Virus genome (UHGV): UHGV-1550212
Source of the DNA: a virus
Length of the DNA stretch: 64,000 nt
Strand: one strand, 5' to 3'
A program made the translations under genes and the position numbers. Positions 4,653 to 61,825 of this stretch are shown in pieces. Below the pieces are notes generated by a model. It saw only the letters and a program-made list of their open reading frames with translations. It made no database searches and was not told the origin of the DNA. Within the stretch, counting starts at the first letter, position 1. Every line of letters starts with the position of its first letter.

Positions 4653-6644
4653 ATGGCTGAAGTCAAGAATCAAGTGTTTAATCCAGTAGCACAATTCAAA
4701 TCTGCTGAAGAAAAAGAAGCTGCGAAAGTTATATGGTGCAGTGAATCAGTCGCAATGGCATATGATGCAGTTGACCAAGGCTTGCCACTTAGAGCAAATC
4801 CGTGGTTCTTTGGCAATATTGCACTGCGTAAGCCCGGATTGCTATACAGATACACTGACATAGAATTGCGTGAATGGCTTAGATGCAAGTATGACATATT
4901 ATATTTTGCTGACACATGGTGTCAGATTTTAACTCCAGATGGCACAAGAAAGCATTTTAATTTGAGACCATATCAACGCAAAATGCTGCGTGCATATCAA
5001 CGACAAAAGTATACGATAGTTCTTACTGGGCGACAAGTAGGCAAAACGGTCGTTACATCAGTATTTCTCGCTTGGGCAGTCATTTTCAATCGTGAGCTTA
5101 ACATAGCAGTACTTGGCGACCGCTTGGCAACATCAAGTGAAAACCTGAACAAAACAAAAGACATCATAAACAATCTGCCGTTCTTTATGAAGCCTGGTGT
5201 GTTTGTTTGGAATGGCGGAATGGTCGCATTTGACAATGGTTGCAAAATTATCACAGGTACTGCTCAAAAGTCATCACTTGTCGGTAAGACAATTCACATC
5301 TTATATCTTGATGAGCTCGCAATTCCACCTGCTCAGCAATCAAAGACTCTTGTAGATTATGCATTGCCAACAATTGCGTCATTGCCAACTGGCAAAGTTA
5401 TCGTAACATCTACGCCATCTGGTGATAATGTGTTCAAGACTTTGTGGCTTGGTGCAATTAACAAAACAAATGGCTTCTTTCCAATTCAAGTAAACTGGTG
5501 GGATATTCCTGGCCGTGATGAAAAGTGGAAAGCTGAGCAAATCGCAATTCTTGGTGAAGATGCTTTCAATGAGCAATACAACTGCGTGTTCTTGTCAGGT
5601 GCAACGTCAATTTTCAATTCAAGAGCAATTGATGATATTGCAAGACGACAGCAAAAGTATGAATTTGTTGCTGATGAGCGTCTTGAATCACTACTCAGAT
5701 TCTTCATTGCTGATTCAGATGTCGGCACTGAACCCGAGCCGCACTCATTTATGACTTGGCGTGCAGATATTGACCCAGCAACACTCAAAAATGAAACATG
5801 TATCATCAATATTGACATTGCTGAAGGTTTATCTGGCGACTTTTCTGTCATACATGTGCATCGTATAGTTGACATTACAAAAGATGTTGAACTTGAACTT
5901 GATGCAAGCAATCTGTATGATATGTTTGACGATGACAAAAAATCATTGTTTGCAAAAGCAGTTGAAATGCAACGTCAAATGTCAGCAACACAAGCTCAAG
6001 ATGATGACGATGATGACGATGACGACTGGTTTGGCGCAGACGATGATGTCGCTCAAGGCGTTGATGCATATCAAGATTATGCGAATGCTGCAGTAGAAGA
6101 GATTGGCTTATGGCGTTCAAATGTGACATCAATCAAAGTCATGGCTCTGTATTTGCAGTTCTTAATGACGTATGTGTTTGATGCAAACAAAACAAAGATT
6201 ATCTATGAACGCAACAAATATGGTGGAGAGTTTCGTTCATATTGTTTGTCTGAACGTGCACGCAATATTGCAATTGATGAAGAGAGCTTCGTAAGCTTCC
6301 AACGAACTCTTGGTTCAGAACAACTTGCACCAGGCTGTTCAATTACGCCTGGCACCAAACCAGTGTACGTAAGACAGCTCAAAGACCTTATTGAAACTGG
6401 CAAGATTCTTGAAAACAATGCAGATACGCAAAGAGAGCTTACATATTTTGGCGGTGTCAAAGGCAAGAATGGTCACGTGTCATATCAGGCGTCACCTGGC
6501 TTCCATGATGACATTGCAATGACTCTTGTATCTCTTGCAGCATTTATGGACACTCGATGCAATGACTGGCTTGAACTGCTTGATGTGTTCTACAATGGCA
6601 GCAGTCAAACAAGTTCTGATGATGACGATGATGACTGGATTTGA
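4653..6644 (+). CDS. terL: Terminase large subunit (T4 gp17-like ATPase-nuclease)
   Basis: Walker A LTGRQVGKTVVTSVFLAWAV, Walker B HILYLDELA, C-terminal nuclease-domain GFHDDIAMTLVSLAAF, all closely resembling T4 gp17 as I recall it. Start moved to ATG 4653 (MAEVKNQ), divergent from the gene starting at 4585. Contains in-frame poly-Asp tracts at 6000-6026 and 6618-6635. Confidence 0.9.
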   Translation: MAEVKNQVFNPVAQFKSAEEKEAAKVIWCSESVAMAYDAVDQGLPLRANPWFFGNIALRKPGLLYRYTDIELREWLRCKYDILYFADTWCQILTPDGTRKHFNLRPYQRKMLRAYQRQKYTIVLTGRQVGKTVVTSVFLAWAVIFNRELNIAVLGDRLATSSENLNKTKDIINNLPFFMKPGVFVWNGGMVAFDNGCKIITGTAQKSSLVGKTIHILYLDELAIPPAQQSKTLVDYALPTIASLPTGKVIVTSTPSGDNVFKTLWLGAINKTNGFFPIQVNWWDIPGRDEKWKAEQIAILGEDAFNEQYNCVFLSGATSIFNSRAIDDIARRQQKYEFVADERLESLLRFFIADSDVGTEPEPHSFMTWRADIDPATLKNETCIINIDIAEGLSGDFSVIHVHRIVDITKDVELELDASNLYDMFDDDKKSLFAKAVEMQRQMSATQAQDDDDDDDDDWFGADDDVAQGVDAYQDYANAAVEEIGLWRSNVTSIKVMALYLQFLMTYVFDANKTKIIYERNKYGGEFRSYCLSERARNIAIDEESFVSFQRTLGSEQLAPGCSITPGTKPVYVRQLKDLIETGKILENNADTQRELTYFGGVKGKNGHVSYQASPGFHDDIAMTLVSLAAFMDTRCNDWLELLDVFYNGSSQTSSDDDDDDWI

Positions 6645-28701: not shown

Positions 28702-28735
28702 GCAAATATATTTTTGTTTGTATATGTACATAAAA

Positions 28736-28765
28736 GAGCAAGTTCTCAATGTGGAGAACTTGCTC
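28736..28765 (-). terminator. Hairpin (12-bp stem gagcaagttctc / gagaacttgctc, loop aatgtg)
   Basis: Perfect inverted repeat downstream of the tRNA/non-coding region on the minus strand. Confidence 0.4.
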
Positions 28766-29159
28766 AGCTGACCTGTTGCCAGGTGAAAGCGTGGTGCAGC
28801 ACCTTGTGCTGCAATGGCTATGCTGCCATCGCCATAACGGGCTGAGCATTGCCCAGCATCATTACACGACCAGCTGCATTAAGCGTACGCTTTGCTTTGT
28901 TGAAAAATTTGCCAGTTATCTGGTATCTGCACATCTATTCAAGCGACCTACTATGCAATCAAATGCCTGTCGAGCCCAATGTTTGAGCAGTTGTTTGTCA
29001 GATGCTCAGCTGACTGCAGTCTTTCTGAGTGTATCAAGTTCAGCGATTCTGCATCTTTGCTAAATGGCAATAGTTCAGGTGGACTCGCCGAGAATCGAAC
29101 TCGGGTCTTACATAGCGCATCCTTGACTTGGTCCTGTAAACAGGGTTGTCAACATGCAT
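28766..29159 (-). ncRNA. Candidate structured non-coding RNA region downstream of the tRNA cluster, including a tRNA-like 3' half at about 29075-29105
   Basis: About 390 nt with no credible ORF, more GC-rich than surroundings, internal repeats (gctcagctgac twice) and a T-arm/acceptor-like CCGAGTTCGATTCTCGGCGAGTCCACC for which I could not find a pairing 5' acceptor strand. Confidence 0.25.
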
Positions 29160-29230
29160 TGCAATACGACAGGACTCGAACCTGCGACCTCGGATTGGAC
29201 GTCCGCGCTCTTACCGCTGAGCTACGTATT
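29160..29230 (-). tRNA. tRNA-Gly(UCC)-like, atypical (G at position 33, G1:G72 mismatch); possibly a pseudo-tRNA
   Basis: Minus strand GAATACG-TA-GCTCAGCGGTAAGAGC-GCGGA-CGTCCAA-TCCGA-GGTC-GCAGG-TTCGAGT-CCTGT-CGTATTG; canonical D and T arms, anticodon TCC. Confidence 0.5.
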
Positions 29231-29321
29231 CTTATCAATTGACTGCACTGCAATGCAATCAATCGTGCCAATGATATTTGACGCATAATTGCAGTTATGC
29301 GTAACAATTCAAATGTCATTG

Positions 29322-29394
29322 AGCCAACTGCAGGAGTCGAACCTGTAACCTGCTGATTACAAATCAGCTGCTCTGCCAATTGAGCTAAGTTGGC
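29322..29394 (-). tRNA. tRNA-Thr(UGU)
   Basis: GCCAACT-TA-GCTC-AATTGGCA-GAGC-A-GCTGA-TTTGTAA-TCAGC-AGGTT-ACAGG-TTCGACT-CCTGC-AGTTGGC-T; acceptor stem 7/7 paired. Confidence 0.8.
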
Positions 29395-29476
29395 ATAAAG
29401 TCGTTGGGCCATTGCAACCCAAACCTATCATCTTTGTCTAACCAAAGATGCAAGTGTTCTCTTACACCACGACTTG

Positions 29477-29548
29477 TAGCCGAACTTGGAGTCGAACCAA
29501 GCTTTCGAGAATGAAAATCTCGCGTCCTAACCGATAGACGAAACGGCC
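29477..29548 (-). tRNA. tRNA-Glu(UUC)
   Basis: Anticodon arm CGAGA-TTTTCAT-TCTCG, T arm CTTGG-TTCGACT-CCAAG, D loop with GG; acceptor stem has two mismatches at its base, so ends are +/- 2 nt. Confidence 0.65.
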
Positions 29549-29731
29549 AAGAGCAGTTCAAGTCTGCAGCATTGAACTGCGGAAACAATGCCTGTACGGG
29601 CAGCAAATTGTGCAGATACAGCGACATTGCAAAATCACACCGAACCAAGTTTGTGGCTCTTCTGTCTCATAAAAACAAGTAATCATTACACTTGGCACCA
29701 ATGATTCTGATGTAAAAATCGGTGTGTTATG

Positions 29732-29816
29732 CGGAGAGTAAGGGATTCGAACCCCTGGTACGTTGCCGTACAGTGGTTTTCAAGACCACCGCCATCGACC
29801 GCTCGGCCAACTCTCC
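29732..29816 (-). tRNA. tRNA-Ser(UGA), long variable arm
   Basis: GGAGAGT ... GTGGT-CTTGAAA-ACCAC, variable arm TGTACGGCAACGTACCA, T arm AGGGG-TTCGAAT-CCCTT, acceptor 3' ACTCTCC perfectly paired. Confidence 0.85.
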
Positions 29817-30010
29817 ATAAAACATTGCATAAGCATTCTTATCTCTTGATGAGACCAAGTAGCTAATTTGGCAAGTTTGTTATATCTATCGTGACTGTTG
29901 CAGTTTGTTTGTCACTCAATACACAAAACTTTCGAACATTCATTGACAGCACTGCAATATCGCTTTTTAAGCTTAGCCATCAATGTATTTATGCAATGTA
30001 TAACAATTCG

Positions 30011-30092
30011 TAGCCAAACCGGGACTTGAACCCAGACTCCTAATGGAACAACATTTTGAGTGTTGCGTGTCTACCAATTCCACCATTTGGCC
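30011..30092 (-). tRNA. tRNA-Leu(CAA), long variable arm
   Basis: Anticodon arm CAACA-CTCAAAA-TGTTG, variable arm about 13 nt, T arm CTGGG-TTCAAGT-CCCGG, acceptor GGCCAAA/TTTGGCT. Confidence 0.8.
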
Positions 30093-30182
30093 ATTTACAA
30101 ATGCAATCTATTTCACAACTGTTTGCATTTGCATTGTTTAACACTAAAAATATGATTCATCTAATCAAAAACCAGAGAATTG

Positions 30183-30256
30183 TAGGGTAGACAGGACTCA
30201 AACCTGCGACCACGTGGTCCCAAACCACGCATTCTAATCAACTGAACTACTACCCT
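30183..30256 (-). tRNA. tRNA-Pro(UGG)
   Basis: AGGGTAG-TA-GTTC-AGTTGATTA-GAAT-G-CGTGG-TTTGGGA-CCACG-TGGTC-GCAGG-TTTGAGT-CCTGT-CTACCCT-A. Confidence 0.85.
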
Positions 30257-30262
30257 AAGTAG

Positions 30263-30334
30263 TTGAACCGTCTGGACTCGAACCAGAAATGGCTGAACCA
30301 AAATCAGCTGTGTTACCGATTACACCACGATTCA
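30263..30334 (-). tRNA. tRNA-Gln(UUG)
   Basis: TGAATCG-TG-GTGT-AATCGGTA-ACAC-A-GCTGA-TTTTGGT-TCAGC-CATT-TCTGG-TTCGAGT-CCAGA-CGGTTCA-A. Confidence 0.85.
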
Positions 30335-30398: not shown

Positions 30399-30427
30399 AT
30401 AATACTACAAACATTTATGATTTGCAC
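30399..30427 (-). promoter_or_regulatory. Promoter-like motif upstream of the tRNA operon (sense TGCAAATCATAAATGTTTGTAGTATTAT)
   Basis: Same TGCAAA-N16-TAnnAT architecture as the protein-gene motifs, about 65 nt upstream of the tRNA-Gln 5' end. Confidence 0.45.
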
Positions 30428-30450
30428 CATATACTGTAACTTTGTATCAC

Positions 30451-30813
30451 TTAATTGTACAATATGACTCTGTCTTTAAGTTTGTGCATGTGTAGCACGC
30501 TTGTAATATCTACTGGCAACTTATATGACCCATCAGATATTGCAAATGCAGCAAGTTGCATAATCAAATCTGCATTGTCTGTAAGAACTTCTGCAAATTT
30601 ACTGGCATCACAACATGCATAATACTTGCGAATTGTTGTTGCTTGTTTTTGTATGATGACGCGCACGTAAACAGTTTGAGCAATGATTGCGCGTCGTAAA
30701 TCAACTTTGACAATACACATAGTGTCATCGTGGTCATTTATGACATGTCGCCATACACCGTCATTGCAAATGCCGTGCTGTGCTATAAGTATTTTCGTGA
30801 TATCAGACATCAT
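30451..30813 (-). CDS. Hypothetical protein (120 aa)
   Basis: ORF; no motif recognised. Confidence 0.45.
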   Translation of the reverse strand: MMSDITKILIAQHGICNDGVWRHVINDHDDTMCIVKVDLRRAIIAQTVYVRVIIQKQATTIRKYYACCDASKFAEVLTDNADLIMQLAAFAISDGSYKLPVDITSVLHMHKLKDRVILYN

Positions 30814-30858
30814 CTCTGTTCAAATATAATTTTTTGATAATAAAATTCCATACAAATA

Positions 30859-31356
30859 TCATTCGATGTTACCAGATAATATCCGAATGGCATCCAATGC
30901 ATTTTCTCGTATTAAGCCAAACTTACCTATAACTTGAACAAAATGTTTGTCATTTTCAAATGTTGAGTCGTCAAGAATGACATATTGTTTGATGTTATGT
31001 TTATCAACAAGCGCAGGCACTGCAGCAAATCTGTCATAAAAGCCCTCAGCATAAATTGATGGCAACAAATAGCCCGGCATATTGCGCTTAAGCCACATTG
31101 TCTTGCAGTCATCAAGAATAGCCCAACTACTTATCAAGCAAATTGCGCCAACATCTGACATCTGACAAATGTATCTCAACCAGCCAACACAACGTTCGTC
31201 AAATAATTGACCAAACTCATCTCTCGACTGCACATCCATGTTTGCACGATGTTTTGACATGTGCAACATATTGAGATTATCTTGGCTATTCAAAACGCCA
31301 TCAATATCCAAGAAAATTACTTTGTCAGGCCAAATCACTTTGCTTGCTGCGTTCAT
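30859..31356 (-). CDS. HAD-superfamily hydrolase (possible 5'-nucleotidase-type phosphatase)
   Basis: HAD motif I VIFLDIDGVLNS and later ILDDS; 165 aa. Confidence 0.45.
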   Translation of the reverse strand: MNAASKVIWPDKVIFLDIDGVLNSQDNLNMLHMSKHRANMDVQSRDEFGQLFDERCVGWLRYICQMSDVGAICLISSWAILDDCKTMWLKRNMPGYLLPSIYAEGFYDRFAAVPALVDKHNIKQYVILDDSTFENDKHFVQVIGKFGLIRENALDAIRILSGNIE

Positions 31357-32200
31357 AACGATGCTTTATTATGTCTTCTATTGTTAGATTGAGCGCAGGC
31401 CACGTGTCAAACACTTTTTGTAATTGCTCATCTGACTTATTAAGAAGCTTCTTATATGTTGTGCTCAATGATTGATAATGAGCGTCAAGAGCTTTGCTGA
31501 TGTGCGCAAGTGGTATTTGCAAATGCACAATACAATGCAGCACAAATGCTTGTTTGCGAAGTCTTTGAACGCCACCATCCAAACGCCAAATTTGCAGCAT
31601 ATTGCATTTTAACGCATCTTCATACAATGACTGCACAACTTGTATGTTATGCTCTGCTGTAGTACGTCTGCTATCGCGTTTTGTTGCTGCAAGCGACCTG
31701 CGTGAATCTGGGCGTTGTCTTGTGTGCTTAATAGTCTGTGCTGTGACATCATTGATATGAATATGAGTTTTCTCAATGTCAATGAATTCAGTACGATGTT
31801 CTTTTGCTGCAGTTTTTCGTCTGCCAAGTACACGTTTGTCATATACTTGTTCTTGCAGTCGTTCAGACAACTCTGCTTGCAAATCTGCGACTTGTTTGCG
31901 CAATATTGCATTTTGCGCAGATTGTTGTGCTGCAATATCTGCAACAGACATAATGTCAAAGACTGTGTTGAGCTGCAGCCATACATTATATGCGCATTCT
32001 ACAATATGACGTTTGGCTGCATCAATTGTTGCAAATTGCTCACGAGTCTTAAATGCATCAAGCATTGTGCTTATGACATACGCATGCTCACGTTGAATTA
32101 TTGTGATATTGATGCCACCAATTGTTGCAGTCCATTGCATTGGCGCAGATAACTGCACATTGACAGATGCATCAATAGACTTGCGCAATGAATCAAACAT
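31325..32200 (-). CDS. Hypothetical protein with coiled-coil region (291 aa)
   Basis: ORF; its ATG (32200-32198) is preceded on the sense strand by the C-rich spacer CCCCCCCACCCCC. Confidence 0.5.
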   Translation of the reverse strand: MFDSLRKSIDASVNVQLSAPMQWTATIGGINITIIQREHAYVISTMLDAFKTREQFATIDAAKRHIVECAYNVWLQLNTVFDIMSVADIAAQQSAQNAILRKQVADLQAELSERLQEQVYDKRVLGRRKTAAKEHRTEFIDIEKTHIHINDVTAQTIKHTRQRPDSRRSLAATKRDSRRTTAEHNIQVVQSLYEDALKCNMLQIWRLDGGVQRLRKQAFVLHCIVHLQIPLAHISKALDAHYQSLSTTYKKLLNKSDEQLQKVFDTWPALNLTIEDIIKHRYERSKQSDLA

Positions 32201-32208
32201 GGTTGCTT

Positions 32209-32221
32209 GGGGGTGGGGGGG
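32209..32221. repeat. Homopolymeric G tract GGGGGTGGGGGGG in the 24-nt spacer between two minus-strand genes
   Basis: Plus strand ttgggggtgggggggtca; striking in AT-rich DNA. Confidence 0.8.
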
Positions 32222-32224
32222 TCA

Positions 32225-32734
32225 TCATAACATTATGAGTTGTTGACGTGCTTGCATCTGCTCAATGCAATCATCACCTGTTATGCACAAATACTGAGGC
32301 AACTTGTCAAGTGAAATGAGCGTGCAAATGTATGGGTCAAAGAACTTATTTGTTGATGCAAGCAAATCGTAAAATAGACATGCTTGTTCTGCATCAAGTC
32401 GAGTAACAACAAGTCTATTGTAGCCAGGCGCATCGAAACCACATTTAAGCAAATGTCTACCGACGCGTATGTCATTGCCCATTGTCAATGTTGCTACAAG
32501 CATGCTGTCACATTCTACTGCAGGTTCTGAGTAGTGCCAGTTAATTGATGCATACGCAGTTAACACATACATGCCAGCAGTGACGTCCCATTCAGACTCT
32601 GCAATAATTGCCCATGTGCGCTTACCATTGTGCTCAATTTCAACAAAATCACCCCTTGTATATGAATCTACAAGCTTTGCAGTTATCAGATACTGCAGTT
32701 GTTCTATGCTATTGTATTTGATGCAAGTTTTCAT
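32225..32734 (-). CDS. Hypothetical protein (169 aa)
   Basis: ORF ending with TGA immediately before the C-rich spacer. Confidence 0.5.
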   Translation of the reverse strand: MKTCIKYNSIEQLQYLITAKLVDSYTRGDFVEIEHNGKRTWAIIAESEWDVTAGMYVLTAYASINWHYSEPAVECDSMLVATLTMGNDIRVGRHLLKCGFDAPGYNRLVVTRLDAEQACLFYDLLASTNKFFDPYICTLISLDKLPQYLCITGDDCIEQMQARQQLIML

Positions 32735-33029
32735 AATCTGTCAATATAAAGCATCGTACAAGTCTTGAAACGAGTCGTCTATGACCCGTCTCAACTCGTA
32801 TCATATGCTTGGTGAATAGTGGACCTGCTGCTGTAACACAATGTCTGTCAAGGGCATTTAGTACTTTGTTCATTGCAATCAATGGGTGCAAATGACTATT
32901 CGGCCAGCATTCTTCTGCAATGTATGTCAAAATGCCATCGCCATATGACACGACTGCGCATTTGTCTGCAACAAGATGCTTCTTAGCAATCTCTGCAACT
33001 TTCTGTGTAGAACAACACATCACAATCAA
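32709..33029 (-). CDS. Hypothetical protein (106 aa)
   Basis: ORF; 4-nt overlap with the topoisomerase gene end. Confidence 0.4.
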   Translation of the reverse strand: MIVMCCSTQKVAEIAKKHLVADKCAVVSYGDGILTYIAEECWPNSHLHPLIAMNKVLNALDRHCVTAAGPLFTKHMIRVETGHRRLVSRLVRCFILTDYENLHQIQ

Positions 33030-35020
33030 TCATCTGCAGCATCACCATCGAAGCCCATTAGTACTTTGCGTACATGCGCATTGCCGCCGAGCCATGCATT
33101 GATTGCATCCCATGAGTCTTCTTTAGCGACTACTTGTTCGAGTACTGGCGCAGACATAATGTCTTCAAACTCTGTAGAAGTCAATGATGCAAGACCCTTC
33201 TTATGATTGACTTCCCAGTCTTTGCTGCCATTGAATTTGTCTGCGACTTTATTGTAATCATCATAGAAGTAGAACTTTCGCTCTTCACCAGTTTTGCGAT
33301 TGTTGCAAATGATGATTGGCGTGACTACGTTGTACACAAGGCCCATGTCAAATAACTCAGGCCAGAACTTATAGAAGAATAACTGCAGCAATGATGAAAT
33401 GCTGTAGCCATCAACATCAGCATCAGTCAAAATGCAAATCTTGCCATAGCGTAATTTGCGTGGGTCTGCTTTTTCATTGAATCGCAAGCCAAGCGACTGC
33501 ATCAAACCAGCAATTTCAGGCTTTTCTATGAGTTTCTTTGGATTGTCATAGTAGCAATTGCCGATTGACTTACCGCGAATGCAGTAGAAGCCTTGAGTAA
33601 GTGCATTTCGATTGACTCGAATACCTTGTGATGCAGAATCACCTTCTACAATGAATAGCATGCATTCATTACGATTTGTCTTTTGTGCAGCATCTACAAG
33701 TTTATTGACGTGAAACTGCTTTGTCTTGACTTCAAGTTTCTTATTGAGCTCCTTGGCTTCTTTGGCTTTCTCTTTCTCTTCTTCAATCTGTTTCTTGATT
33801 TTGCAGTCCATCAAGATGCGGTCAAGAATTTCAGTTTTTGTCAAGTACTTCTTGAGCTTATCTGAAATGAGAATTGGAAAGCCAAACTTTTGTGTTTTTG
33901 TAGCCAATTTATCTTTGACCTGCGCATCGAATTCAGGATTGGGGATTTTCCACATCGACAAAATTGACATGTGCTTAAATACGTCTTTCTTTGCAGGTTC
34001 AAACCCATATTTGTTTTTGATGTGACTAATCAAAAAGTCTGCGCATACATTCGCGATGAAGTCCATATGCGTGCCATAGTCACATCGAATTGAATTGACT
34101 ATTGCAAAGCTTTCAAAGAAGCCTGCTCTACTTGGACCAATCTCAAAACTGTAGTTTTCGTTTTCATCACCACGAAATTCTTGAGTATGTTCCCATAAGT
34201 CTTTGTATTCCCAGAAGTGTTTGAACTTGAACTCATAGTTTTCACCAGTGACTTCATTGTGCCATTCAACTACAAGTGGATTGTTTACATCGCAGCCCAT
34301 AACTGCGACTTCAATTGCTCGTGATAGCCACTTGTCTACAGTGTCATCTGGAATGTGGTCAAGCGGAGCTGCGTTAATCCACTCCCATCTGCCAAGGTCA
34401 AGATGAGCTTCGATGTATGTAAAATGTTCAGACTTACGGCATTTGCTGACTTTTGCCTCATCATGTCGCCCCATGTTGTCATACCAGCAAATTTCAAGTT
34501 TTTTGCCATCTTTTGCTGTAATGACTTTGAATGACTTAGACATCACATTGACAAGTGACGCGCCAAGACCATTTGTGCCAGACAATGCGCCGCGGTCAGC
34601 AACAAAATTTGAACCAGACCTCAATGAGCCAAATACCATCTGCGGTATGTACTCATTGTACTCTGGATGCATCACTACAGGAATGCCACCGTTGTCCCAT
34701 ACTGCAAGCTTGCCTGTTTTTGGGTTGACTGTGACAGATATGCGATTGACTACTTCTTGTGCATGACTTTGAATGTTACGTTGACGCTCATCAAAACTAT
34801 TATTGATGCACTCATTAAACATTGTATTCAAGCCAATTGACTGATATGTGTCATAGACACGTCGAATCGGTCTTTCAGCATCTTCATATGGACGATACAA
34901 CTCACATTCTTGTTCCGCAAGAAATTCAAGCGAACCTATGTACATGCCGGGCTTCAGTAGACAATGCTCGCGCGATGAAAGTTTTTTGAATTTTTCTGTC
35001 AGAGTGTTTATGTCAGACAT
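33026..35020 (-). CDS. DNA topoisomerase II, GyrB-like ATPase + TOPRIM subunit (T4 gp39/gp60-like, fused)
   Basis: ATPase motifs GLNTMFNECINNSFDE, VWDNGGIPV, GTNGLGASLVNVMS; TOPRIM motifs LFIVEGDSA and KICILTDADVDGYSI. Start at MSDINTL (ATG 35020). Confidence 0.85.
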   Translation of the reverse strand: MSDINTLTEKFKKLSSREHCLLKPGMYIGSLEFLAEQECELYRPYEDAERPIRRVYDTYQSIGLNTMFNECINNSFDERQRNIQSHAQEVVNRISVTVNPKTGKLAVWDNGGIPVVMHPEYNEYIPQMVFGSLRSGSNFVADRGALSGTNGLGASLVNVMSKSFKVITAKDGKKLEICWYDNMGRHDEAKVSKCRKSEHFTYIEAHLDLGRWEWINAAPLDHIPDDTVDKWLSRAIEVAVMGCDVNNPLVVEWHNEVTGENYEFKFKHFWEYKDLWEHTQEFRGDENENYSFEIGPSRAGFFESFAIVNSIRCDYGTHMDFIANVCADFLISHIKNKYGFEPAKKDVFKHMSILSMWKIPNPEFDAQVKDKLATKTQKFGFPILISDKLKKYLTKTEILDRILMDCKIKKQIEEEKEKAKEAKELNKKLEVKTKQFHVNKLVDAAQKTNRNECMLFIVEGDSASQGIRVNRNALTQGFYCIRGKSIGNCYYDNPKKLIEKPEIAGLMQSLGLRFNEKADPRKLRYGKICILTDADVDGYSISSLLQLFFYKFWPELFDMGLVYNVVTPIIICNNRKTGEERKFYFYDDYNKVADKFNGSKDWEVNHKKGLASLTSTEFEDIMSAPVLEQVVAKEDSWDAINAWLGGNAHVRKVLMGFDGDAADD

Positions 35021-35050
35021 GTCTGTAAATTGAGATGTTTGTATATGTAT

Positions 35051-35079
35051 ATTGTACAACAAGAATGCAAAACTTGCAC
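35051..35079 (-). promoter_or_regulatory. Promoter-like motif (sense AGTGCAAGTTTTGCATTCTTGTTGTACAAT)
   Basis: About 30 nt upstream of ATG 35020. Confidence 0.45.
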
Positions 35080-35207
35080 TGAAAATATACACATTTTCAC
35101 ATAACAGCAAGCATAATGCCAAGCAGCACTGCAAGACATATCAAACCTATGCCAAGAACAATAAAGTCCAGCATAGAATACGTGTCATTAGACTGTTTCA
35201 TAAGTAG

Positions 35208-36134
35208 TTATCGCAATTGATTCTTTGCAATGAATGCATTGATGTGCTCTGGCTTGCATACAGCACGATAGTAGAGTTCAAATACTCGTTTAGCAGATGG
35301 CAATTTGCATGCAGTCAAATCTTTATTTTGCATTATAACACCAGTGATGTACTTAATGTCATGTCGTTCAATGTCTGAACAATTATGCTTTGCAGCAAAT
35401 TCAAATGCTTGCTTGATAATTTTTGAACATTCTGCTGTGGTGCATTGCTGAAACGCTATGCAAAACTCTGCATAAGTGCTGCAGTCATTTTGCAGATGTA
35501 ATGCAACAGATGATTTCAACATTGATTCTGTTAAGTACTTTGGCAGCTTGCACAAAATTTTGACGTACTTGCACTTGTCATCTGTCACATGCACGTAGCC
35601 AGACACTGCAAGCATTCTAACATATCGAACAAGTTCTCTATGCTGTAGTGCTGTGCGCAGTATGACATTATTTTGCAGCAAAATTTCATTGTCAACTGTG
35701 CAGTTAAGTGGCAATGTGTTGTATGCTACTTTAAGATACGATAGCTTCGTTAATTGTTGTAAGCCATCATAGCCAACAAAATCTGCTGGCACAATCAGTG
35801 GCAGACTGCAAACGACTTGTCGATTATTTCTGTCAACAATTGTGATTGCTGGGTTTTGCAAGTCAAGCACAGATTTTGAGCAAAACACTTGCATGACACC
35901 TTGAACTGTGACAAATCCGAAGTTCTTGCACAATTGCATATTGCATGTACGAGCTTCTGCTGCGCTAATTGTTGCAATGGGCAACTGTTTGTCGCTACGC
36001 ACATGCATTGGAGCTGGCCATATTGGGTCAGCTCTCAATACAAGCACATGTTTATTGCAGTCATATATTGCAGCAAAATCTGCAAGATTGCTGATGTATC
36101 TTAAAGTAGTGTTACAAATCCCATTCATATGCAT
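35208..36134 (-). CDS. Hypothetical Cys-rich protein (start uncertain)
   Basis: ORF 35208..36350 trimmed to internal Met MHMNGICNT because the N-terminal part overlaps the upstream gene out of frame. Confidence 0.45.
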   Translation of the reverse strand: MHMNGICNTTLRYISNLADFAAIYDCNKHVLVLRADPIWPAPMHVRSDKQLPIATISAAEARTCNMQLCKNFGFVTVQGVMQVFCSKSVLDLQNPAITIVDRNNRQVVCSLPLIVPADFVGYDGLQQLTKLSYLKVAYNTLPLNCTVDNEILLQNNVILRTALQHRELVRYVRMLAVSGYVHVTDDKCKYVKILCKLPKYLTESMLKSSVALHLQNDCSTYAEFCIAFQQCTTAECSKIIKQAFEFAAKHNCSDIERHDIKYITGVIMQNKDLTACKLPSAKRVFELYYRAVCKPEHINAFIAKNQLR

Positions 36135-36945
36135 TGTCTTGTACAGGTCCACTAATTTGAACATCGAGGCCAAAGCGCTCAAGATAGCCATCGCAGAAAT
36201 CAAGCCCATATTTGTTGCACTGTCTGAATGCATACTGGAACTTATCCAAGATTGCCCATAGATAAGGCTTTGAGCCTTCTGTGGGATATCCGCCCTTTCT
36301 GTAATGCCACCAGCGCATGATATCATGAAACTCCCAATCTTCTGCTTCACATTCTACTGTAAAGCAGTCATGATATTTTGCCATCTGAGGCCAGAGTTCA
36401 GTATTGATGCGTTGACGAGTTGCTGCGCAGTCATCAAGCAACTCAAGAAACTCTTCAGGCGCATCAATCATGGGCAGATTTGCTTCATTGACATCTATTT
36501 CTGCATCATTCGACAGCAGCTTTGTGATACGACCATTATGCTCCGCAATGTCCTCATAGACTTTTTTGCGCGTAGCATCCATAGTCGCAGTCCACTTCGT
36601 GCCCTCTTCAATTTTCGGAAGTTGCTTGTCTTTGTTTTCATTCCATTCAGGTGACTGGTCGAATATTGCCTTGCGACGAATATCGACAAGCTCCAAAAAG
36701 AAGGGCTTCGTCAACATAACAGTGTCACCCAGAATTTCTTTTGCTTGTTCAAAGCCCTCAATTTTGATTGAGTCTGCTGCAGCACAAATCTGCTCCTGAA
36801 TTTTGTCTGCAGCTTCAAGAATGATGCGAGCTTTTGTTTTGATGTCGTAAGATGCAGAATGTAAGCCAAGCTGCTCTGCAATTTCTACGGAATTTTGAAG
36901 ACGAGCCTGCATGGCTTCTTCATTGTTCTTCTTTCCTCGTGCCAT
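36112..36945 (-). CDS. Hypothetical protein (277 aa)
   Basis: ORF; acidic, no motif recognised. Confidence 0.5.
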   Translation of the reverse strand: MARGKKNNEEAMQARLQNSVEIAEQLGLHSASYDIKTKARIILEAADKIQEQICAAADSIKIEGFEQAKEILGDTVMLTKPFFLELVDIRRKAIFDQSPEWNENKDKQLPKIEEGTKWTATMDATRKKVYEDIAEHNGRITKLLSNDAEIDVNEANLPMIDAPEEFLELLDDCAATRQRINTELWPQMAKYHDCFTVECEAEDWEFHDIMRWWHYRKGGYPTEGSKPYLWAILDKFQYAFRQCNKYGLDFCDGYLERFGLDVQISGPVQDNAYEWDL

Positions 36946-36960
36946 AATGTTATTGTTTTG

Positions 36961-37209
36961 CTATATGAGACTTGTTATGACTTCAAGCACATGTTCTTTT
37001 GAATAGCACTTATCAAACTTATGCTTGAAGTCAAATAGTGACTCAAGCTTTGTTAAGTACCATTGATTGTCATACTTGAACCAGACTCGAGCATTTGCCG
37101 AACATATTGCATGCATTGCAGCATTCTGGTCTTCTTCAGGATTACGCCACTTAGACCCAAAGTGATATTGCAATGTAATGCCGCATTTATGAATTTCGTG
37201 CAATTTCAT
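36961..37209 (-). CDS. Hypothetical small protein (82 aa)
   Basis: ORF. Confidence 0.4.
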   Translation of the reverse strand: MKLHEIHKCGITLQYHFGSKWRNPEEDQNAAMHAICSANARVWFKYDNQWYLTKLESLFDFKHKFDKCYSKEHVLEVITSLI

Positions 37210-37218
37210 GTGTACTTG

Positions 37219-37473
37219 CTAAAATGTTAACTGTAATGACTTGATATTGCTGCATTCGATTTTTAACATGGCCAACTTGTCATGTGCAGCCATTGCGTCA
37301 TATTTGATGTTTGCAATTTCGAGCTTTTGTGCAATTTTGTATGCAGTGGCAGCATCAGTAGATATGCAGATGCAATTGCCAATGACTATATTTGCTGCAT
37401 CTGTTATGTTAACTTTGCATGCATTATCATTGTTATCAATGACTTCGATGCATTTGATTGAGTTAAAGTCCAT
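37219..37473 (-). CDS. Hypothetical small protein (84 aa)
   Basis: ORF with promoter-like motif 37526-37554 upstream. Confidence 0.4.
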   Translation of the reverse strand: MDFNSIKCIEVIDNNDNACKVNITDAANIVIGNCICISTDAATAYKIAQKLEIANIKYDAMAAHDKLAMLKIECSNIKSLQLTF

Positions 37474-37525
37474 ATTGCAGAGGTTTAGTATATTTGACTC
37501 TATATTATTTATAGATTAATACTAC

Positions 37526-37554
37526 ACACTTGCAGATTTTGCACTTAATTGATA
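37526..37554 (-). promoter_or_regulatory. Promoter-like motif (sense GTGCAAAATCTGCAAGTGTGTAGTATTAAT)
   Basis: Recurrent motif in the divergent intergenic region. Confidence 0.4.
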
Positions 37555-37644
37555 AATAATTTGTAAACATTTTCACAAACTTTTAACAGCTCTTTCGCTT
37601 ATGAAAACTACTCAACTCTGGTTTGAACGCCAGCAGTCAATCGC

Positions 37645-37651
37645 GGGGGGG
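37645..37651. repeat. Homopolymeric G7 tract 27 nt upstream of the plus-strand gene at 37678
   Basis: caatcgcgggggggctcttc in an otherwise AT-rich intergenic region. Confidence 0.8.
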
Positions 37652-37677
37652 CTCTTCGTGCTCCTGATTACATAGAT

Positions 37678-38370
37678 GTGCGGTTTACGCTCGTAGATGA
37701 TATGAGCATACATTGTGCATATATGCCAAACATATATGTGTTTGCTGATGGCAATGAGTATGCAATATCTCCAATAGGTTCACAATCACTTGATTATGAC
37801 GGCTCATGTATTGTACGTATTACCAAGTCAGACTGGATTGAAATGTTTGGCGCTGGTGTTACACAAGGCAGACTTAAATTTGGCTATGGTACAAATGAGC
37901 TTGAATTTTGTGAATTGATAAGCACTGCAACTGCTGAAGTCAAATTCGTTATTGGTTATGAGCAAAACCAGTCTGTCACTGCAACATTTAGTGATTTGCT
38001 GCATAATCCACTTGTCGCAACAAACAACAATTCTGCACAAGCAACAATTACATATACATTTAGTCATGCGACATTTAGAACAGCAGCATTTACGATTATC
38101 GGTAATGTGACATTTATTCCAGGCGGTGATGTAAGTAAAACAGCTATAATTCTTGCGCCTAATTATAGTATAACAATTAAGTACACTACGTCATCAACGC
38201 CAAAACTATTTGAGCATTCAATGACATTTGAGCGTAACAATGAAATGCTTGAGTATGTTGGCACTGAAGTAGACAGACATGCGTATTGTCAAATGAGACG
38301 TAGAACTACGGGCTCAACTGTATATTGTCATGTGTATATTGATGATAGCATGCTTAATATGATGGATTGA
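37678..38370 (+). CDS. Hypothetical protein (230 aa), one of only two plus-strand genes
   Basis: ORF begins with GTG at 37678 (ATG alternative at 37702); followed by a strong hairpin. Confidence 0.5.
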   Translation: MRFTLVDDMSIHCAYMPNIYVFADGNEYAISPIGSQSLDYDGSCIVRITKSDWIEMFGAGVTQGRLKFGYGTNELEFCELISTATAEVKFVIGYEQNQSVTATFSDLLHNPLVATNNNSAQATITYTFSHATFRTAAFTIIGNVTFIPGGDVSKTAIILAPNYSITIKYTTSSTPKLFEHSMTFERNNEMLEYVGTEVDRHAYCQMRRRTTGSTVYCHVYIDDSMLNMMD

Positions 38371-38385
38371 TAGTTGTAATATTGC

Positions 38386-38430
38386 GCAAAAAGAAAGCCG
38401 AACTGAATTTCAGTTCGGCTTTCTTTTTGC
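38386..38430. terminator. Perfect 21-bp-stem hairpin with flanking A/T runs; bidirectional terminator between convergent genes
   Basis: gcaaaaagaaagccgaactga / att / tcagttcggctttctttttgc. Confidence 0.7.
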
Positions 38431-38446
38431 ATACGCTTATGCTATG

Positions 38447-41400
38447 TTAGAACAGAGCAATGATGTTGTCGACAAACATAAAGCATGCATGCAGCAATTC
38501 AGCTGTCGGCATCATCTCATATGCTTTGCCATCATACATGAATCGCACAGTGACAATGGGTGACACTTCATCTTTGAATGCAAGCACAGGAACATCTACA
38601 CCTGCAGTCAATTGCACTTCAACATCCTTGTCAGCTGCTACATCTTTAGCAATCACTGTAATATCTCGACAACGACCAGCAGCTACTGCATATCTAACAT
38701 TTGTCAATGTAGCAGACATGTCAGCAAGAGCTTGCATGATTTGTTGCTGAGTAAATTGCTCAACTGACTTCTTTGCAGCCTTGACAGCTTCGATATCTTG
38801 TGTGTTTGCAAGAATCAATGCTACCACTGCAGGGTCAGAAGTAGTCCACCAACGACCATCAATTGCAAGCCACAGTCGATTGCCATTGACGTCAATTGCA
38901 TATGCATATTGAGTGTTTGGCGCCAATGCGACTTTTCGAGTGTTCTTTAAGAACTCTGCCGCATCAGGAGCCGCAACAATGTTCTTGACAAATGACGGCA
39001 GCATTTCAGCTTCAAATGTTTGTGTAGCTTCAAAGACACCGCCATGTGCATCGTCATCAATTCTGCCTGCAAAGCGTTTGCAGATTTGAATGATTGTAGC
39101 CATGCCTACCGTTGAAACGACTTGACGTTTCATTGCAGGCATTTGCAGAGGCATTGTATCTTGCGCAATGTACAATGATGTCGTATTAATAGTGTCAAGT
39201 ACTCGTGCAATGTCTGCAGTATCAACAATTACAAACCAGTCGCCGTCATGGCAGACAATAAGTTGCTTGCTGTCATTTGCATATGTCAGCAATACTGCAA
39301 TGTCATTTTTGATTGAGATTGCAGGAATCCATGCTTGTTGCAGAGGTAAGTCAAGATTTGGTGTGCCGCATGGATAAAGCGCAGATGGCTGCATAATTGA
39401 GCGGCAATCAAAACCTATTGAACTTACAAGCTGCAGAACTTCGCCACGAATGCAAGCATTACTTTGATTCTGTGTCATGTCATATGCAAGCCAACTGCAA
39501 ATTGCTTTGATTGATGACACTGGAAATGCTACGCCAATTGTGCTGTATGCAATCTTGCCGTCTGCTGACAATGACTCATCAACTGCAATGCCAGCATCAT
39601 TGAACAATGACATATCAATTGAACAATGGAATTCGCCACCAGGCATTGGACCTGCAGCAATGCCATAGCCAGGACCAAGTGACAGCCATTCTTTCATTGC
39701 ATCTGAATTGTATGACGAGAACTTGTACAACACGTATGACTTATGCGGGTCACTAACTGACTTGCGAATCTCCATCTTGGCGCCTGCTTTCTTTGCAATT
39801 GCTTTAATGTTATCGGCGTGCTTCTTTGCCTCAGACTTATCAAATTTGCCTTCATCAAGTTGAGCAATCTTGCCAAGCGCATAAGCAGTCCATGCAATTG
39901 ACAATTGATTCAGCGCGCCAACTTCTGACCACGACTTTTCTGCAAACCATGAGCCAAGACCAGATTTGTCAAGAGTTTCTTTGCGTTCAGCTTTTGTTGC
40001 AGCATCCCACCACTTGCCTGTTGCAGGCAACACAACGTCTTTGATTTGCTCCTTGCGAAGCTCATTGACACCGATTTTGCCCTCATGAACATGCGCATTT
40101 GCATGATATGCTCTAAGAGCAGCCAATGCAGCATCATATGAGTCATAGTCTTGCGGCCAGAATTCCCCATTCTTGCCAATGATGCCCCATACGCCCTTTG
40201 ACTTTTCTTGTATGACAGAATCTTTGTCACCGGCAGCTTCATTGACAAATGCTGTGTTAAGATACGCAATGACATGCTGAAGCTCTTTGTCATCTGCAGA
40301 CTCATTGACATTCTTAGCGTAATCACCAAGAATTGATTCAACTTTGCCACGCAAATTGCTTGGCATATCATCAAGGTCAAGATTGCCATACTTCGTGACT
40401 TCTGGTTGAGACAATCCAAGCAATTTCAACACCTTATCACGGTACTTGTTTGCGAGCTTCTTCCAAATCCAGCGGAATGTTACAGCGCCAATCAGAAATT
40501 TGATGAGGCCCTCATCAAGTACATGCTGTTCACGCAAATATGACGTAATGCATGAACGTTGACCATCAGTCAAGTCAACCCACATTTTATCAAGCAATAT
40601 TGAATCTGGGTTGCTTGCAATGCCAGCACCACTGCGGTTGTACACATTCATTCTGTCAATTGCTGGTGTTGCGTCATTGTCCCACCAAGCTTGTGCATAT
40701 GAACATCCAGCAGGATTTGAGATTGCCTCATTAATGTACATGACATTGAAGATTTCGCAAAGACGCTTGCGGCATTCATGTGACATAACTTGCCATTGTT
40801 CGGCAATTTTGTCTTCTGACCACTGCAGCAACATGTCTGCAAATTCTTTACCTGCGCATTGCTCAACTACACCATGTTTTGAACGCCAATAATTGTCAGG
40901 CTCAATCTGCGCAATTGCATGAACAAATGAAGTCAGATTGTATGACGCAGATTCGCAAATGCAATGCTGTTCAATGTAGCTACGAACAGCAAGTGCAGTG
41001 TCTTCCGGCAAGTTGCTATATGGTGACTCATAGATGTTTGCTTGCTGATTGAGCATATGTGGAGCAACTTCTGCAATGATTTGCTTGCGAACATTCAATG
41101 GCCATGCATTCCATGAAGATTCTACAGATTCATCAAGATGCATGCCAATTGCATCCATAACTGCATCAGCATCTTTGCCCAACAGTTCGTCAAACAATTT
41201 GTCTACTACTGCAGTGTCATATCGCAAATTTGGCTGAGCTTTTGCAAGAGCATTCATCATTGCTTTGCGTTCTTGTTTTGACGCATTGTTCCATGTGCCA
41301 GCATACAATTCTGCTGTCGCGCTTTCACAGACAATATCTGCAGCAGCATATGCTTGCTTCATAATGTCCATGAAGATTGACTTCATTTTTGGATGCATCA

Positions 41401-59790: not shown

Positions 59791-60021
59791 CAATGAATAC
59801 GTTTGTCAGAAACTGTCAATGTGTGCAATCGCTTGAAGAGTTAGCTGAACAGCTTGTTGATGCGATTGCTGCATTGGTGACTACCAAGCAGCCCATTGAA
59901 CATTGGATTCGACATCAACGTCTTTGTGGTTGTTGTTGAACTCACCAAGCCAGCAAGTATCATTTAGCAAGTTTCCAAACTTAACGTACTTGTCGTTCCC
60001 CGGCTTGGGTGGCGCAGGTTG

Positions 60022-61737
60022 TCAAATCCAGCCGTAGTCGCTGTGGATAGCGAAGGTGAGATAAGCCAACTCGGGATACATACCCGTCTCCGCGAGAGCG
60101 TAATCCGACTCAATCAGCAACTTAGGTGCTGCTGTACCCTCAGCGGTTAATTCCACACTTGATGCAAGGTCATATGGCATGAATACACATCCCTGGTTGA
60201 CATTCTCTACGTCAACGCCGTCAGCAGTCTTGTTCGTACGAAGAACGAGAACAGTGTTATCGTTCAGCGGCTGCTTAGGATTGCAATAGATTTTAATGCC
60301 AGCCAAGTCACCTGCATAATACAGGTTCTTGTTGTCCTGTACCAGCGTATTGTCAAGAGCTGCAACAAAGTTCTTCTGAGCCTTAATTGCAACCAAGGCA
60401 ATCGTATTGACCACAGCAGCATCACCAGCACCGAAACGCGACAGGTTGCCAATGATTGTCGAAGCAGCCAGGATACGAGTTGCGATACGAGCCTGACGGG
60501 TAATCTGGTTCTCAGCCGAGCTGTTCGATTCAGCGTTAGGAACCATGCCGAACTCAGCCGTGCGGTCTACACCCATCTTGTCAACGAATGCAGGAGCCTG
60601 GAATTCCGAGAATGCCTTGGCAGTCGAACCAGCGTAGCCAATGTACAAGTTCAGGTTGTAGCCCTGAGCAGCCAACAGCTGAGCATGTGTCGTAACACCA
60701 AGTGCACGCATGCGCTTCAGACCATTGTCGTTGATTGACTGCGTGATTTCATTCTGCATTGCATTCTTGATGATTGCAACTGCATCCAAACCGCGAGCAC
60801 GGAGGTCCTTAACCTGGCGACGAGTCAGAGCACCCCAAGTCTGGTACGTCTTAACTTCGATAGCCTTTGAGAAGGTGCGGAGCTCCAGCATGTTCGGGTT
60901 GCCAGCCTCAGCCTCAGAACGAGACATTGGATTGCCGTCAAGGTCATCCATTGCAGCGAAGCCGTGGATGTGTTCGTCACCAGCCGAAACCAGGTCGAAC
61001 ATAACCTCAGTCATGCCAGTCAGCATGTCAGTTACAGCACCTGTAGCGTCAACCGAGTAGATTTTCGATGCAGCCATTGCAACATCAGCCAACGACTTGT
61101 CAGGAGCAACAGTCATTGCGCCACCAGCGCCAACGGTATATACGCCTTCATTGCGAACTACGAGGTAGCCTGCAACACGCGATACCTGTACGAACGTTAC
61201 CTTGGCAGCAAGCTCACCAGCAGCTGAACCGCCGATGTACAGAACTTGACCCTTCTTGAGGCCATGAACCATTGTCTGCGAAGCAACATTGTACAACTCC
61301 TTCCACTTGATGAGGAAGTAGCGAGGACCCTTGGCTGCGTTCAACTTGCCACCACCATACACGTAGTCTACATAGTCCAGCTGAACCAGCGGGCTGTATA
61401 CAGGAATGGCCGGGAGCAGGTCGAACAGAATCGTGTTGGCTGCGATGTTCATGTTCAGAGCCAGAACATTGGCAGCTACATCGATTGAACCACGCTTACG
61501 CGACGGGTCATGGAACTGTGCTTGCGTACCTGGGTCAGCAGGGAAAGCGACCGGACCTACGCCATTGAGATTCTGCGAATACGTCGACTCAAACGACTCG
61601 TTCATATACTGAACGTTCTGAGCGATTGATGCGAGCAGATACTTCTTAGCGGGCGAAAGCTTGGAGTCAAACGACTCATCAAGAACAGGGCCCCACTTTT
61701 TCAGCAATGCATCAATCTGTGTACGTTTTGCGTTCAT
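60022..61737 (-). CDS. Major capsid protein (T4 gp23-like)
   Basis: N-terminus TQIDALLKKWGPVLDE versus T4 gp23 TKAELLNKWKPLLEGE; internal QVKDLRARGLDA versus AQDLRAVHGMDA; codon usage noticeably more GC-rich at third positions than neighbours. Confidence 0.8.
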   Translation of the reverse strand: MNAKRTQIDALLKKWGPVLDESFDSKLSPAKKYLLASIAQNVQYMNESFESTYSQNLNGVGPVAFPADPGTQAQFHDPSRKRGSIDVAANVLALNMNIAANTILFDLLPAIPVYSPLVQLDYVDYVYGGGKLNAAKGPRYFLIKWKELYNVASQTMVHGLKKGQVLYIGGSAAGELAAKVTFVQVSRVAGYLVVRNEGVYTVGAGGAMTVAPDKSLADVAMAASKIYSVDATGAVTDMLTGMTEVMFDLVSAGDEHIHGFAAMDDLDGNPMSRSEAEAGNPNMLELRTFSKAIEVKTYQTWGALTRRQVKDLRARGLDAVAIIKNAMQNEITQSINDNGLKRMRALGVTTHAQLLAAQGYNLNLYIGYAGSTAKAFSEFQAPAFVDKMGVDRTAEFGMVPNAESNSSAENQITRQARIATRILAASTIIGNLSRFGAGDAAVVNTIALVAIKAQKNFVAALDNTLVQDNKNLYYAGDLAGIKIYCNPKQPLNDNTVLVLRTNKTADGVDVENVNQGCVFMPYDLASSVELTAEGTAAPKLLIESDYALAETGMYPELAYLTFAIHSDYGWI

Positions 61738-61825
61738 GATTGAATTTGTTTGTTATTGAAAGTGAAACATATATTTCTGTATAATATGTATAGAACTACT
61801 GACATTGATTGAATTGTGAAAATGG

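Follow-up and report, generated by a model that had tools for sequence, protein, structure and literature searches.

What does a run of 12 guanines, interrupted by a single T, do between the stop codon of one gene and the start codon of the next, in a phage genome that otherwise avoids GG and CC? Here, we analyze such a tract in a stretch of 64,000 nucleotides (64 kb; hereafter the window) from the virus genome UHGV-1550212. We report that the tract is very probably a non-coding hypermutable repeat, and we develop a reading, to which we assign a probability of roughly 0.5, in which this slippage-prone repeat would gradedly tune translation of the downstream gene.

Sequence and layout of the intercistronic tract

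On the plus strand, the tract consists of G5 at 32209–32213, a T at 32214, and G7 at 32215–32221. Read on the sense (minus) strand, the junction runs ATA ATG TTA TGA TGA, then C7-A-C5, then AAGCAACC, and finally ATG TTT GAT, i.e., the upstream open reading frame (ORF) stops at the TGA at 32227–32225, and the downstream ORF begins at the ATG at 32200–32198 (Table 1). The initial annotation had placed a G5-T-G7 tract between two genes at this site, which the sequence read-out bears out, and had given 24 nt for the spacer between the upstream stop and the downstream ATG, which is correct. It had further described the spacer as almost entirely tract, and here it overstated the case, since only 13 of the 24 nt belong to the tract and the rest is the second TGA plus AAGCAACC.

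Table 1. Coordinates of the tract, the surrounding elements, and the second tract in the window
Feature	Position	Strand	Remarks
G5-T-G7 tract, GGGGGTGGGGGGG	32209–32221	+	C7-A-C5 on the sense (−) strand; hypervariable simple-sequence repeat
Intercistronic spacer, 24 nt	32201–32224	−	Second TGA, tract, and AAGCAACC
Second stop, TGA	32224–32222	−	In frame with the upstream gene; tandem stops TGA TGA
AAGCAACC	32208–32201	−	Between tract and ATG; invariant among relatives; carries the A at −3
Upstream gene, 169 aa	32225–32734	−	Tandem stops TGA TGA; dN/dS 0.04–0.18 among lineages
Downstream gene, 291 aa, ORFan	31325–32200	−	Helical, coiled-coil, basic stretch; tract in its initiation region
Two upstream AUGs (ATGATG)	32223–32228 (32228–32226 and 32225–32223)	−	Overlap the upstream stop codon
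11-codon uORF, MMTPPPPSNHV*	32193–32228	−	Window allele; TGA at 32195–32193, 5 nt past the annotated ATG
Second hypervariable tract, G7	37645–37651	+	5′ coding end of the gene from ATG 37601, 15 codons in

Long G/C homopolymers had been called rare in AT-rich phage DNA, and the statistics for the window agree: the tract is far beyond chance by both a dinucleotide Markov model and simulation. The window has a G+C content of 40.5%, with GG at 0.41 and CC at 0.62 of expectation; for 64 kb, the model predicts 0.06 G/C runs of at least 7 nt, as compared with two observed, and none of 200 simulations contained a 13-mer with 12 G. The only other G/C runs of at least 5 nt in the window are the G7 of the second tract and two C5 runs. 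Counted singly, the G/C runs of at least 5 nt number five in all in the 64 kb. The avoidance of GG and CC is strand-asymmetric in the whole window, and AA and TT stand at 1.05 of expectation. The G+C content rises to 0.49 at 60001–62000 against a background of ~0.40, and this block matches an ORF at 60022–61737 (571 aa).

The phage and its probable host

The adjacent gene (33026–35134) encodes the large subunit of a T4-type topoisomerase II, which is most similar to proteins from Chryseobacterium phages (37%) and Prevotella Lak megaphages. The region 29161–30334 contains seven tRNA genes, and 47 of the 50 long ORFs are on the minus strand. ARAGORN places a candidate permuted tmRNA at 28727–29169 (minus strand) beside the tRNA cluster, with an overlap of a few bases with tRNA-Gly. 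Contigs of 96–181 kb that are identical or related to the window come from human-gut metagenomes (ZEEV15-1, COST17-2, GAOR21-1, and others), and at the nucleotide level megablast gave no match to the region among cultured phages. From these contigs and their origin we infer that the source is an uncultured human-gut phage of ~175–180 kb.

A Shine-Dalgarno (SD)-like core stands upstream of 1 of the 50 long ORFs, which equals the background (1.9%). The leaders of these ORFs are A-rich and G-poor, with A at 54–64% in positions −12 to −14 and at 50% in position −3. This resembles the SD-less initiation pattern, A-rich at −14 to −11 and with A at −3, that has been described for mRNAs of Bacteroidota (Baez et al. 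2019, PMC6847099), and it suggests a Bacteroidota-like host. A pattern scan of GTDB genomes gave no match, hence no host assignment from prophages.

Length alleles of the tract among relatives

Junctions were collected from IMG/VR, from one JGI contig (the only one added by a pattern scan of JGI metagenomes), and by exact-protein look-ups in ENA and Logan assemblies. This yielded eight lineages from independent gut metagenomes, which carry 34–135 substitutions per 1,540 nt of flank. Every close relative carries the tract, and seven alleles of 6–13 nt were found: C6 (IMGVR_UViG_3300045988_149023), C8 (three lineages), C9 (COST17-2 samples, contigs L006/L007; also the allele of P0005, the most abundant lineage with 57 contigs), C10 (ERR1539648, contig L009), CCAC8 (i.e., C2AC8; ERR13908735), CCACCCACCCCC (C2AC3AC5; ERZ27260843 and ERR1136811), and C7AC5 (the window and ZEEV15-1_SAMEA3664939). 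With lengths of 6, 8, 9, 10, 11, 12, and 13 nt, all classes modulo 3 are occupied. The flanks, TGA...AAGCAACCATG, are identical in all eight lineages, and the upstream stop codon is TGA in seven of them and TAA in the eighth.

The tract had been taken for a classical slipped-strand site, and a uniform length across deep coverage together with absence from all relatives would have spoken for a neutral oddity or an assembly artefact. The comparison with related genomes contradicts this: no close relative lacks the tract, whose length varies from 6 to 13 nt between invariant flanks. As in a hypermutable simple-sequence repeat (SSR), tract length polymorphism exceeds flanking substitution among close relatives, and the pure runs of C6 to C10 found in them are long enough to slip (about 6–7 nt or more). 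The C9 and C10 contigs come from different samples and are identical over 3,510 nt outside the tract; please note that this single-base difference derives from short reads and may be a homopolymer miscall. Three lineages that are 2–3.6% apart all have C8, so the instability is only moderate at this length.

Two short-read contigs end or begin at G/C tracts. The Logan contig L004 (ERR1137265_27407) ends 2 nt past the upstream stop, directly before the tract, and contig L020 (ZEEV15-1_SAMEA3664609 scaffold_281) starts inside the second tract (G7); contig ends at both tracts fit either read-level heterogeneity or a drop in coverage.

Start codon of the downstream gene and coding status of the tract

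At tract lengths of 6, 9, or 12, both AUGs at the upstream stop share the frame of the downstream ORF. A length divisible by 3 gives an in-frame N-terminal extension of 8–9 residues (MMTPPQAT-M...), a remainder of 1 gives a uORF of 10–12 codons that ends 5 nt beyond ATG 32200, and a remainder of 2 gives an overlapping uORF of 41–43 codons. Gene callers report the same gene as 291, 292, 299, or 300 aa, the 299/300-aa products being called in the C9 and 12-nt alleles. The in-frame alleles make up three of the seven, which is near the chance rate of one third.

An exhaustive HMMER search returned just two clusters at the level of 50% identity, one being the window's group and the other that of L012, the only distant homologue locus, whose two proteins are 48% and 40% identical to those of the window. 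The L012 junction reads TGAtATG and holds no C run, and its protein start, MQLPLRKSI, aligns residue for residue with the MFDSLRKSI of the annotated start. Moreover, no relative has a disrupted downstream ORF, and dN/dS for this ORF is 0.04–0.27 irrespective of tract phase. The tract is considered non-coding because all modulo-3 classes occur, because L012 starts at the internal methionine, because there are only two clusters, and because the ORF stays intact under selection. On this comparison, the functional start of the downstream gene is ATG 32200, and a stop and a start that once nearly overlapped have been separated by the tract, an insertion specific to this lineage. Since the out-of-frame lineages also keep an intact ORF under purifying selection, translation from ATG 32200 is expected in all lineages.

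A change of ±1 nt in this tract does not truncate a protein, as it does in intragenic tracts of the Fletchervirus type. The initial annotation had proposed that length changes alter spacing or coupling and not frame. The spacing part holds, as the stop-to-start distance varies from 17 to 24 nt and neither annotated frame shifts; the frame part holds only partially, as the frame of the AUGs overlapping the stop is reset by every change that is not a multiple of three.

The initiation region and a proposed effect on translation

The tract spans positions −9 to −21 of the downstream gene's leader, and the patch at −14 to −11 reads CCCC or ACCC in every allele, with the A at −3 kept. Positions −21 to −9 hold 12 C, as compared with 0–4 in the 49 other long ORFs, and positions −14 to −11 hold one A, as compared with a mean of 2.2 in the other genes. 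In Flavobacterium johnsoniae, A residues at −14 to −11 stimulate initiation, and a swap to UCCC lowered reporter output by 90% (PMC6847099). Applied here by analogy, from another organism and another mRNA, this reporter result would predict a low rate of initiation at ATG 32200.

Promoter scans covered sigma-70-type sites and the Bacteroides-type pattern TTTG-N18-22-TAnnTTTG. No sigma-70-type site spans the tract, the Bacteroides-type pattern shows no enrichment in the window and does not occur at the tract, and no promoter- or terminator-like site was found in the spacer. The predicted local mRNA fold is ordinary (z = −1.7), the tract is largely unpaired in it, and the pairing probability of the AUG is 0.59 for every allele. 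A structural route is therefore unsupported, since the predicted accessibility of the start codon is the same for all alleles. We also considered the conservation of AAGCAACC as a sign of constraint and dropped it: eight invariant sites are unremarkable at the observed diversity.

We propose the following model. Units of poly(C) in the mRNA, i.e., of poly(G) on the plus strand, would be gained and lost by slipped-strand mispairing during phage replication. The tract lies between two co-oriented ORFan genes that are probably co-transcribed. The C's in place of the A-rich −14 to −11 enhancer would leave ATG 32200 with weak independent initiation, which would then depend on ribosomes coming from the upstream gene. 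Each slippage event would shift the distance from stop to start within the 17–24 nt range and would also decide the fate of ribosomes that start at the stop-overlapping AUGs, the product being, by length class, an extended protein, a short uORF with its stop slightly downstream of the real AUG, or an overlapping uORF of greater length. The outcome would be a heritable, reversible, and graded "volume control" of downstream gene output and not ON/OFF switching.

The persistence of the run in all eight lineages (dS up to ~0.29), in a genome that purges such runs, mildly argues for maintenance. Whether the tract has a real effect on expression seems to us close to an even question, leaning slightly to the negative. 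We have also considered that tract length modulo 3 might set the fate of ribosomes restarting at the upstream-stop AUGs, as a three-state translational rheostat for an SD-less host, among genome-wide G/C switches of which some would be intragenic ON/OFF switches in the cassette genes with the 20-aa leader. Here, a long overlapping uORF would block the real AUG and a short uORF would hand over to it, which would amount to a heritable and reversible dosing of an ORFan, possibly regulatory, protein; we consider this improbable.

A second hypervariable tract and the genes that share its leader

With G7, as in the window, the frame of the gene from ATG 37601 breaks after MKTTQLWFERQQSIAGG and meets a stop at 37673–37675 (MKTTQLWFERQQSIAGGLFVLLIT*), and the 222–230-aa body, which extends to 38370, lies in another frame. 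G8 (ERZ27260843) restores a 256-aa ORF, and G6 is also found. The second tract is intragenic and its length changes shift the frame; the public protein clusters hold seven truncated and two full-length forms. By its sequence, 37601–38370 (plus strand) looks like a classical ON/OFF contingency gene in the OFF state. Formally, G GGG GGG could also serve as a slippery heptamer for −1 frameshifting, which would yield the same protein. Judging from these length variants, slippage of G/C runs occurs in this phage and serves to switch genes. The intercistronic tract becomes more likely functional because the second tract slips and switches frame, which is not proof.

In the relative IMGVR_UViG_3300045988_149023, the gene is absent at the homologous site, and three paralogues are clustered at 139.6–142.7 kb (L026:8869, L027:222, and L027:~2527). 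Each has the leader MKT(T/P)Q(L/F)WFERQQ(SI/GL)AGG, then G7, then an unrelated body of ~140–260 aa that belongs to no known family. The shared leader is 20 aa long, and one of the paralogues has diverged DNA with the conserved peptide MKTPQFWFERQQGLAGG; a search of cultured phages with the 20-aa leader peptide gave no match. All three paralogues are out of frame in this assembly; the ON state would require G8 in one of them and G6 or G9 in another. The slot at 37474–38446, between a 1068-aa gene and an 84-aa gene, is a variable cassette site: compared with contigs L025, L028, and L021, it holds either a leader-polyG gene or a 76-aa gene instead, and in L021 the same leader and tract precede a different body, similarity breaking 9 nt after the tract. 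Unrelated bodies that share only an N-terminal leader are reminiscent, by analogy, of the T4 internal proteins, in which diverse bodies stand behind a common N-terminal capsid-targeting sequence (PMC3012670).

At L027:1349–1355, a C7 run directly follows a TGA (gatatgTGAcccccccAAttcaa), and this TGA-Cn-AA order is also that of the tract at 32209–32221. Read on the opposite strand, the C7 run precedes, by ~110 nt, an ORF of 136 aa whose N-terminal motif is YFETGDKPTSAQFGDLVDSIF.

Alternative explanations

The strong rival to a graded effect on translation is a neutral hot spot, i.e., a C run that arose once, for instance by insertion between stop and start, that slips like any long G/C run and persists only because indels are harmless at this site, and that has no measurable effect on either gene; we regard it as a real possibility, although a tentative one. 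It can draw on the purging of G/C runs elsewhere in the genome (GG 0.41, CC 0.62 of expectation), on the tolerance of all length classes, and on the A-interruptions in three of the seven alleles, which resemble ordinary microsatellite decay; predicted folding is unaffected by length, the conservation of the 8-mer flank is not significant, and the distant relative L012 manages without a tract. However, a freely slipping run should often collapse, yet the run is kept in eight of eight lineages (dS up to ~0.29), each with at least six tract bases and a pure run of at least five C. The tract also lies exactly on −9 to −21, a segment important for initiation in SD-less bacteria, and the other long run of the same genome is clearly functional in type. 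If, instead, the true start were at 32228 or 32225, the tract would encode proline, and the locus would be a coding contingency locus, ON at 6/9/12 and OFF at 8/10/11/13. For this speak the extension of the ORF to the upstream ATGs by gene callers in the C9 and 12-nt alleles (299/300 aa), the C9 of the most abundant lineage P0005, which is in frame, the intragenic ON/OFF tract in the same genome, and the ATGA overlap at the upstream stop, a classical coupled-start arrangement. We nevertheless hold this to be very unlikely: three in-frame alleles of seven is near chance, the distant homologue begins exactly at the internal methionine, and the supposedly OFF lineages, including three diverged C8 ones, retain an intact ORF under purifying selection.

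Poly-C is the best activator of the transcription terminator Rho, and the tract might be a recognition element, an idea raised in the initial annotation for a protein or the ribosome, i.e., a C-rich RNA or a G-rich DNA bound by a factor, with tract length setting the affinity. Besides Rho, the factor might be ribosomal protein S1, a DNA-binding protein of the phage, or a G-rich small RNA of the RepG-tlpB kind. In the predicted mRNA fold most of the tract is unpaired, and it comes directly after a stop codon, where RNA is ribosome-free; in Helicobacter pylori, a small RNA acts on a variable homopolymeric repeat of an mRNA leader, with a length-dependent outcome (PMC8295292). Against such an element, Rfam gives no match in 30400–38600, the 64-kb window offers no complementary G run other than the G7 in the leader of gene 37601, and 6–13 nt is short for Rho loading. 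We consider it unlikely. Two G runs cannot make an intramolecular G-quadruplex, and a G-quadruplex or i-motif was ruled out on this ground. The least credible explanation, which we practically dismiss, is a sequencing or assembly artefact, i.e., a poly-G read-end artefact or a homopolymer miscall in the contig. Assemblers do struggle at these runs, with contigs L004 and L020 breaking at tracts, and the ±1 difference between C9 and C10 is within the error-prone range of Illumina. The tract, however, lies inside contigs of 96–181 kb from many studies and assemblers, always with the same flanks, miscalls do not produce allele differences of as much as 7 nt or the distinct A interruptions, and where ENA and Logan both have an assembly of one strain, the two are in agreement (L013/L014 and L015/L016). 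Because L003, an ENA assembly made independently, has the window's sequence and many further assemblies contain alleles of the tract, the tract is not an assembly artefact.

Comparison with known systems and significance

To our knowledge, experimental demonstrations of hypermutable repeats in phages are limited to Campylobacter phages and, lately, T-even phages. In bacteria, promoter-spacer SSRs (the poly-G/C of Neisseria porA/opc and the poly-C of Bordetella fim) act as a "volume control," with expression graded by tract length (for a review, see PMC11868660); there, the repeat separates the −35 and −10 hexamers of the promoter. The present tract is, like them, an intergenic G/C homopolymer; unlike them, it showed no promoter-like hexamers around it in the scans for sigma-70-type and Bacteroides-type sites, and it sets a stop-to-start distance of 17–24 nt, so any effect would probably be translational. 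The H. pylori tlpB/RepG system, in which the length of a leader homopolymer gives graded post-transcriptional control of an operon (PMC8295292), likewise uses a non-coding leader repeat; it needs a complementary C/U-rich small RNA, whereas the repeat here is C and not G, and in a phage.

In Fletchervirus Campylobacter phages, polyG tracts of 7–11+ nt vary by slippage (Sorensen et al. 2021, Cell Rep 35:109214, as recounted in PMC12823448 and bioRxiv 10.1101/2025.10.21.683753). According to these accounts, the tracts are part of genes for receptor-binding proteins, which they turn ON or OFF. The likeness is that of a slippage-variable G/C homopolymer in a phage genome that gives rise to sub-populations, and the second tract, being intragenic and frame-shifting, matches closely. 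The tract at 32209–32221 differs in that it is intercistronic, stands beside ORFans, shifts no annotated frame, and belongs to a phage whose signals are of the Bacteroidota type and not of the Campylobacter type. In T2/T4 and other coliphages, homopolymer SSRs of at least 6 nt have raised indel rates, and a minority are intergenic (Gomez, Barrick & Waters 2025, bioRxiv 10.1101/2025.10.21.683753). The functional examples among them, agt and rIIA, are intragenic frameshifts in AT-rich runs, and the intergenic ones have no assigned function; here, in contrast, the run is G/C, up to 13 nt long, and in a genome otherwise avoiding GG/CC. Compared with the Bacteroidota initiation rule, the genes of the window follow the SD-less A-rich pattern, and the tract departs from it with A at −3 retained.

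Hypermutable repeats let clonal populations hedge their bets, and in this large uncultured gut phage a minimum of two G/C tracts differ from one person's gut sample to another's. The known phage loci are mostly intragenic; a G/C tract in the intercistronic initiation region of an SD-less system is in an unusual position. If tract length does change output, the locus would be a simple and testable case of repeat-mediated translational tuning without SD recognition, and the flanking ORFans would be marked as genes whose dosage matters. On the practical side, such tracts break short-read assemblies and give differing called protein lengths for one gene.

The flanking proteins

Neither flanking protein falls into a known family in Pfam, PHROGs, a PDB sequence search, tblastn against cultured phages, or the exhaustive HMMER search. 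The AF2 model of the 291-aa protein, made from a 3-sequence alignment, has a pLDDT of 52.7 and is unusable, and a C-terminal helix-turn-helix in this protein was an unsupported impression. An apparent frameshift of the downstream gene in contig L008 (84 + 227 aa) proved to be a run of N in the scaffold and not biology. In contig L001, at ~5430–5500 (the homologue from UViG149023, residues ~143–166), a local stretch differs completely (LIVISIMSQYRLLSTQDNA as against THSHINDVTVQTTKRTRQR) in a protein that is otherwise ~90% identical, as if two frameshifts in the basic linker region had compensated each other.
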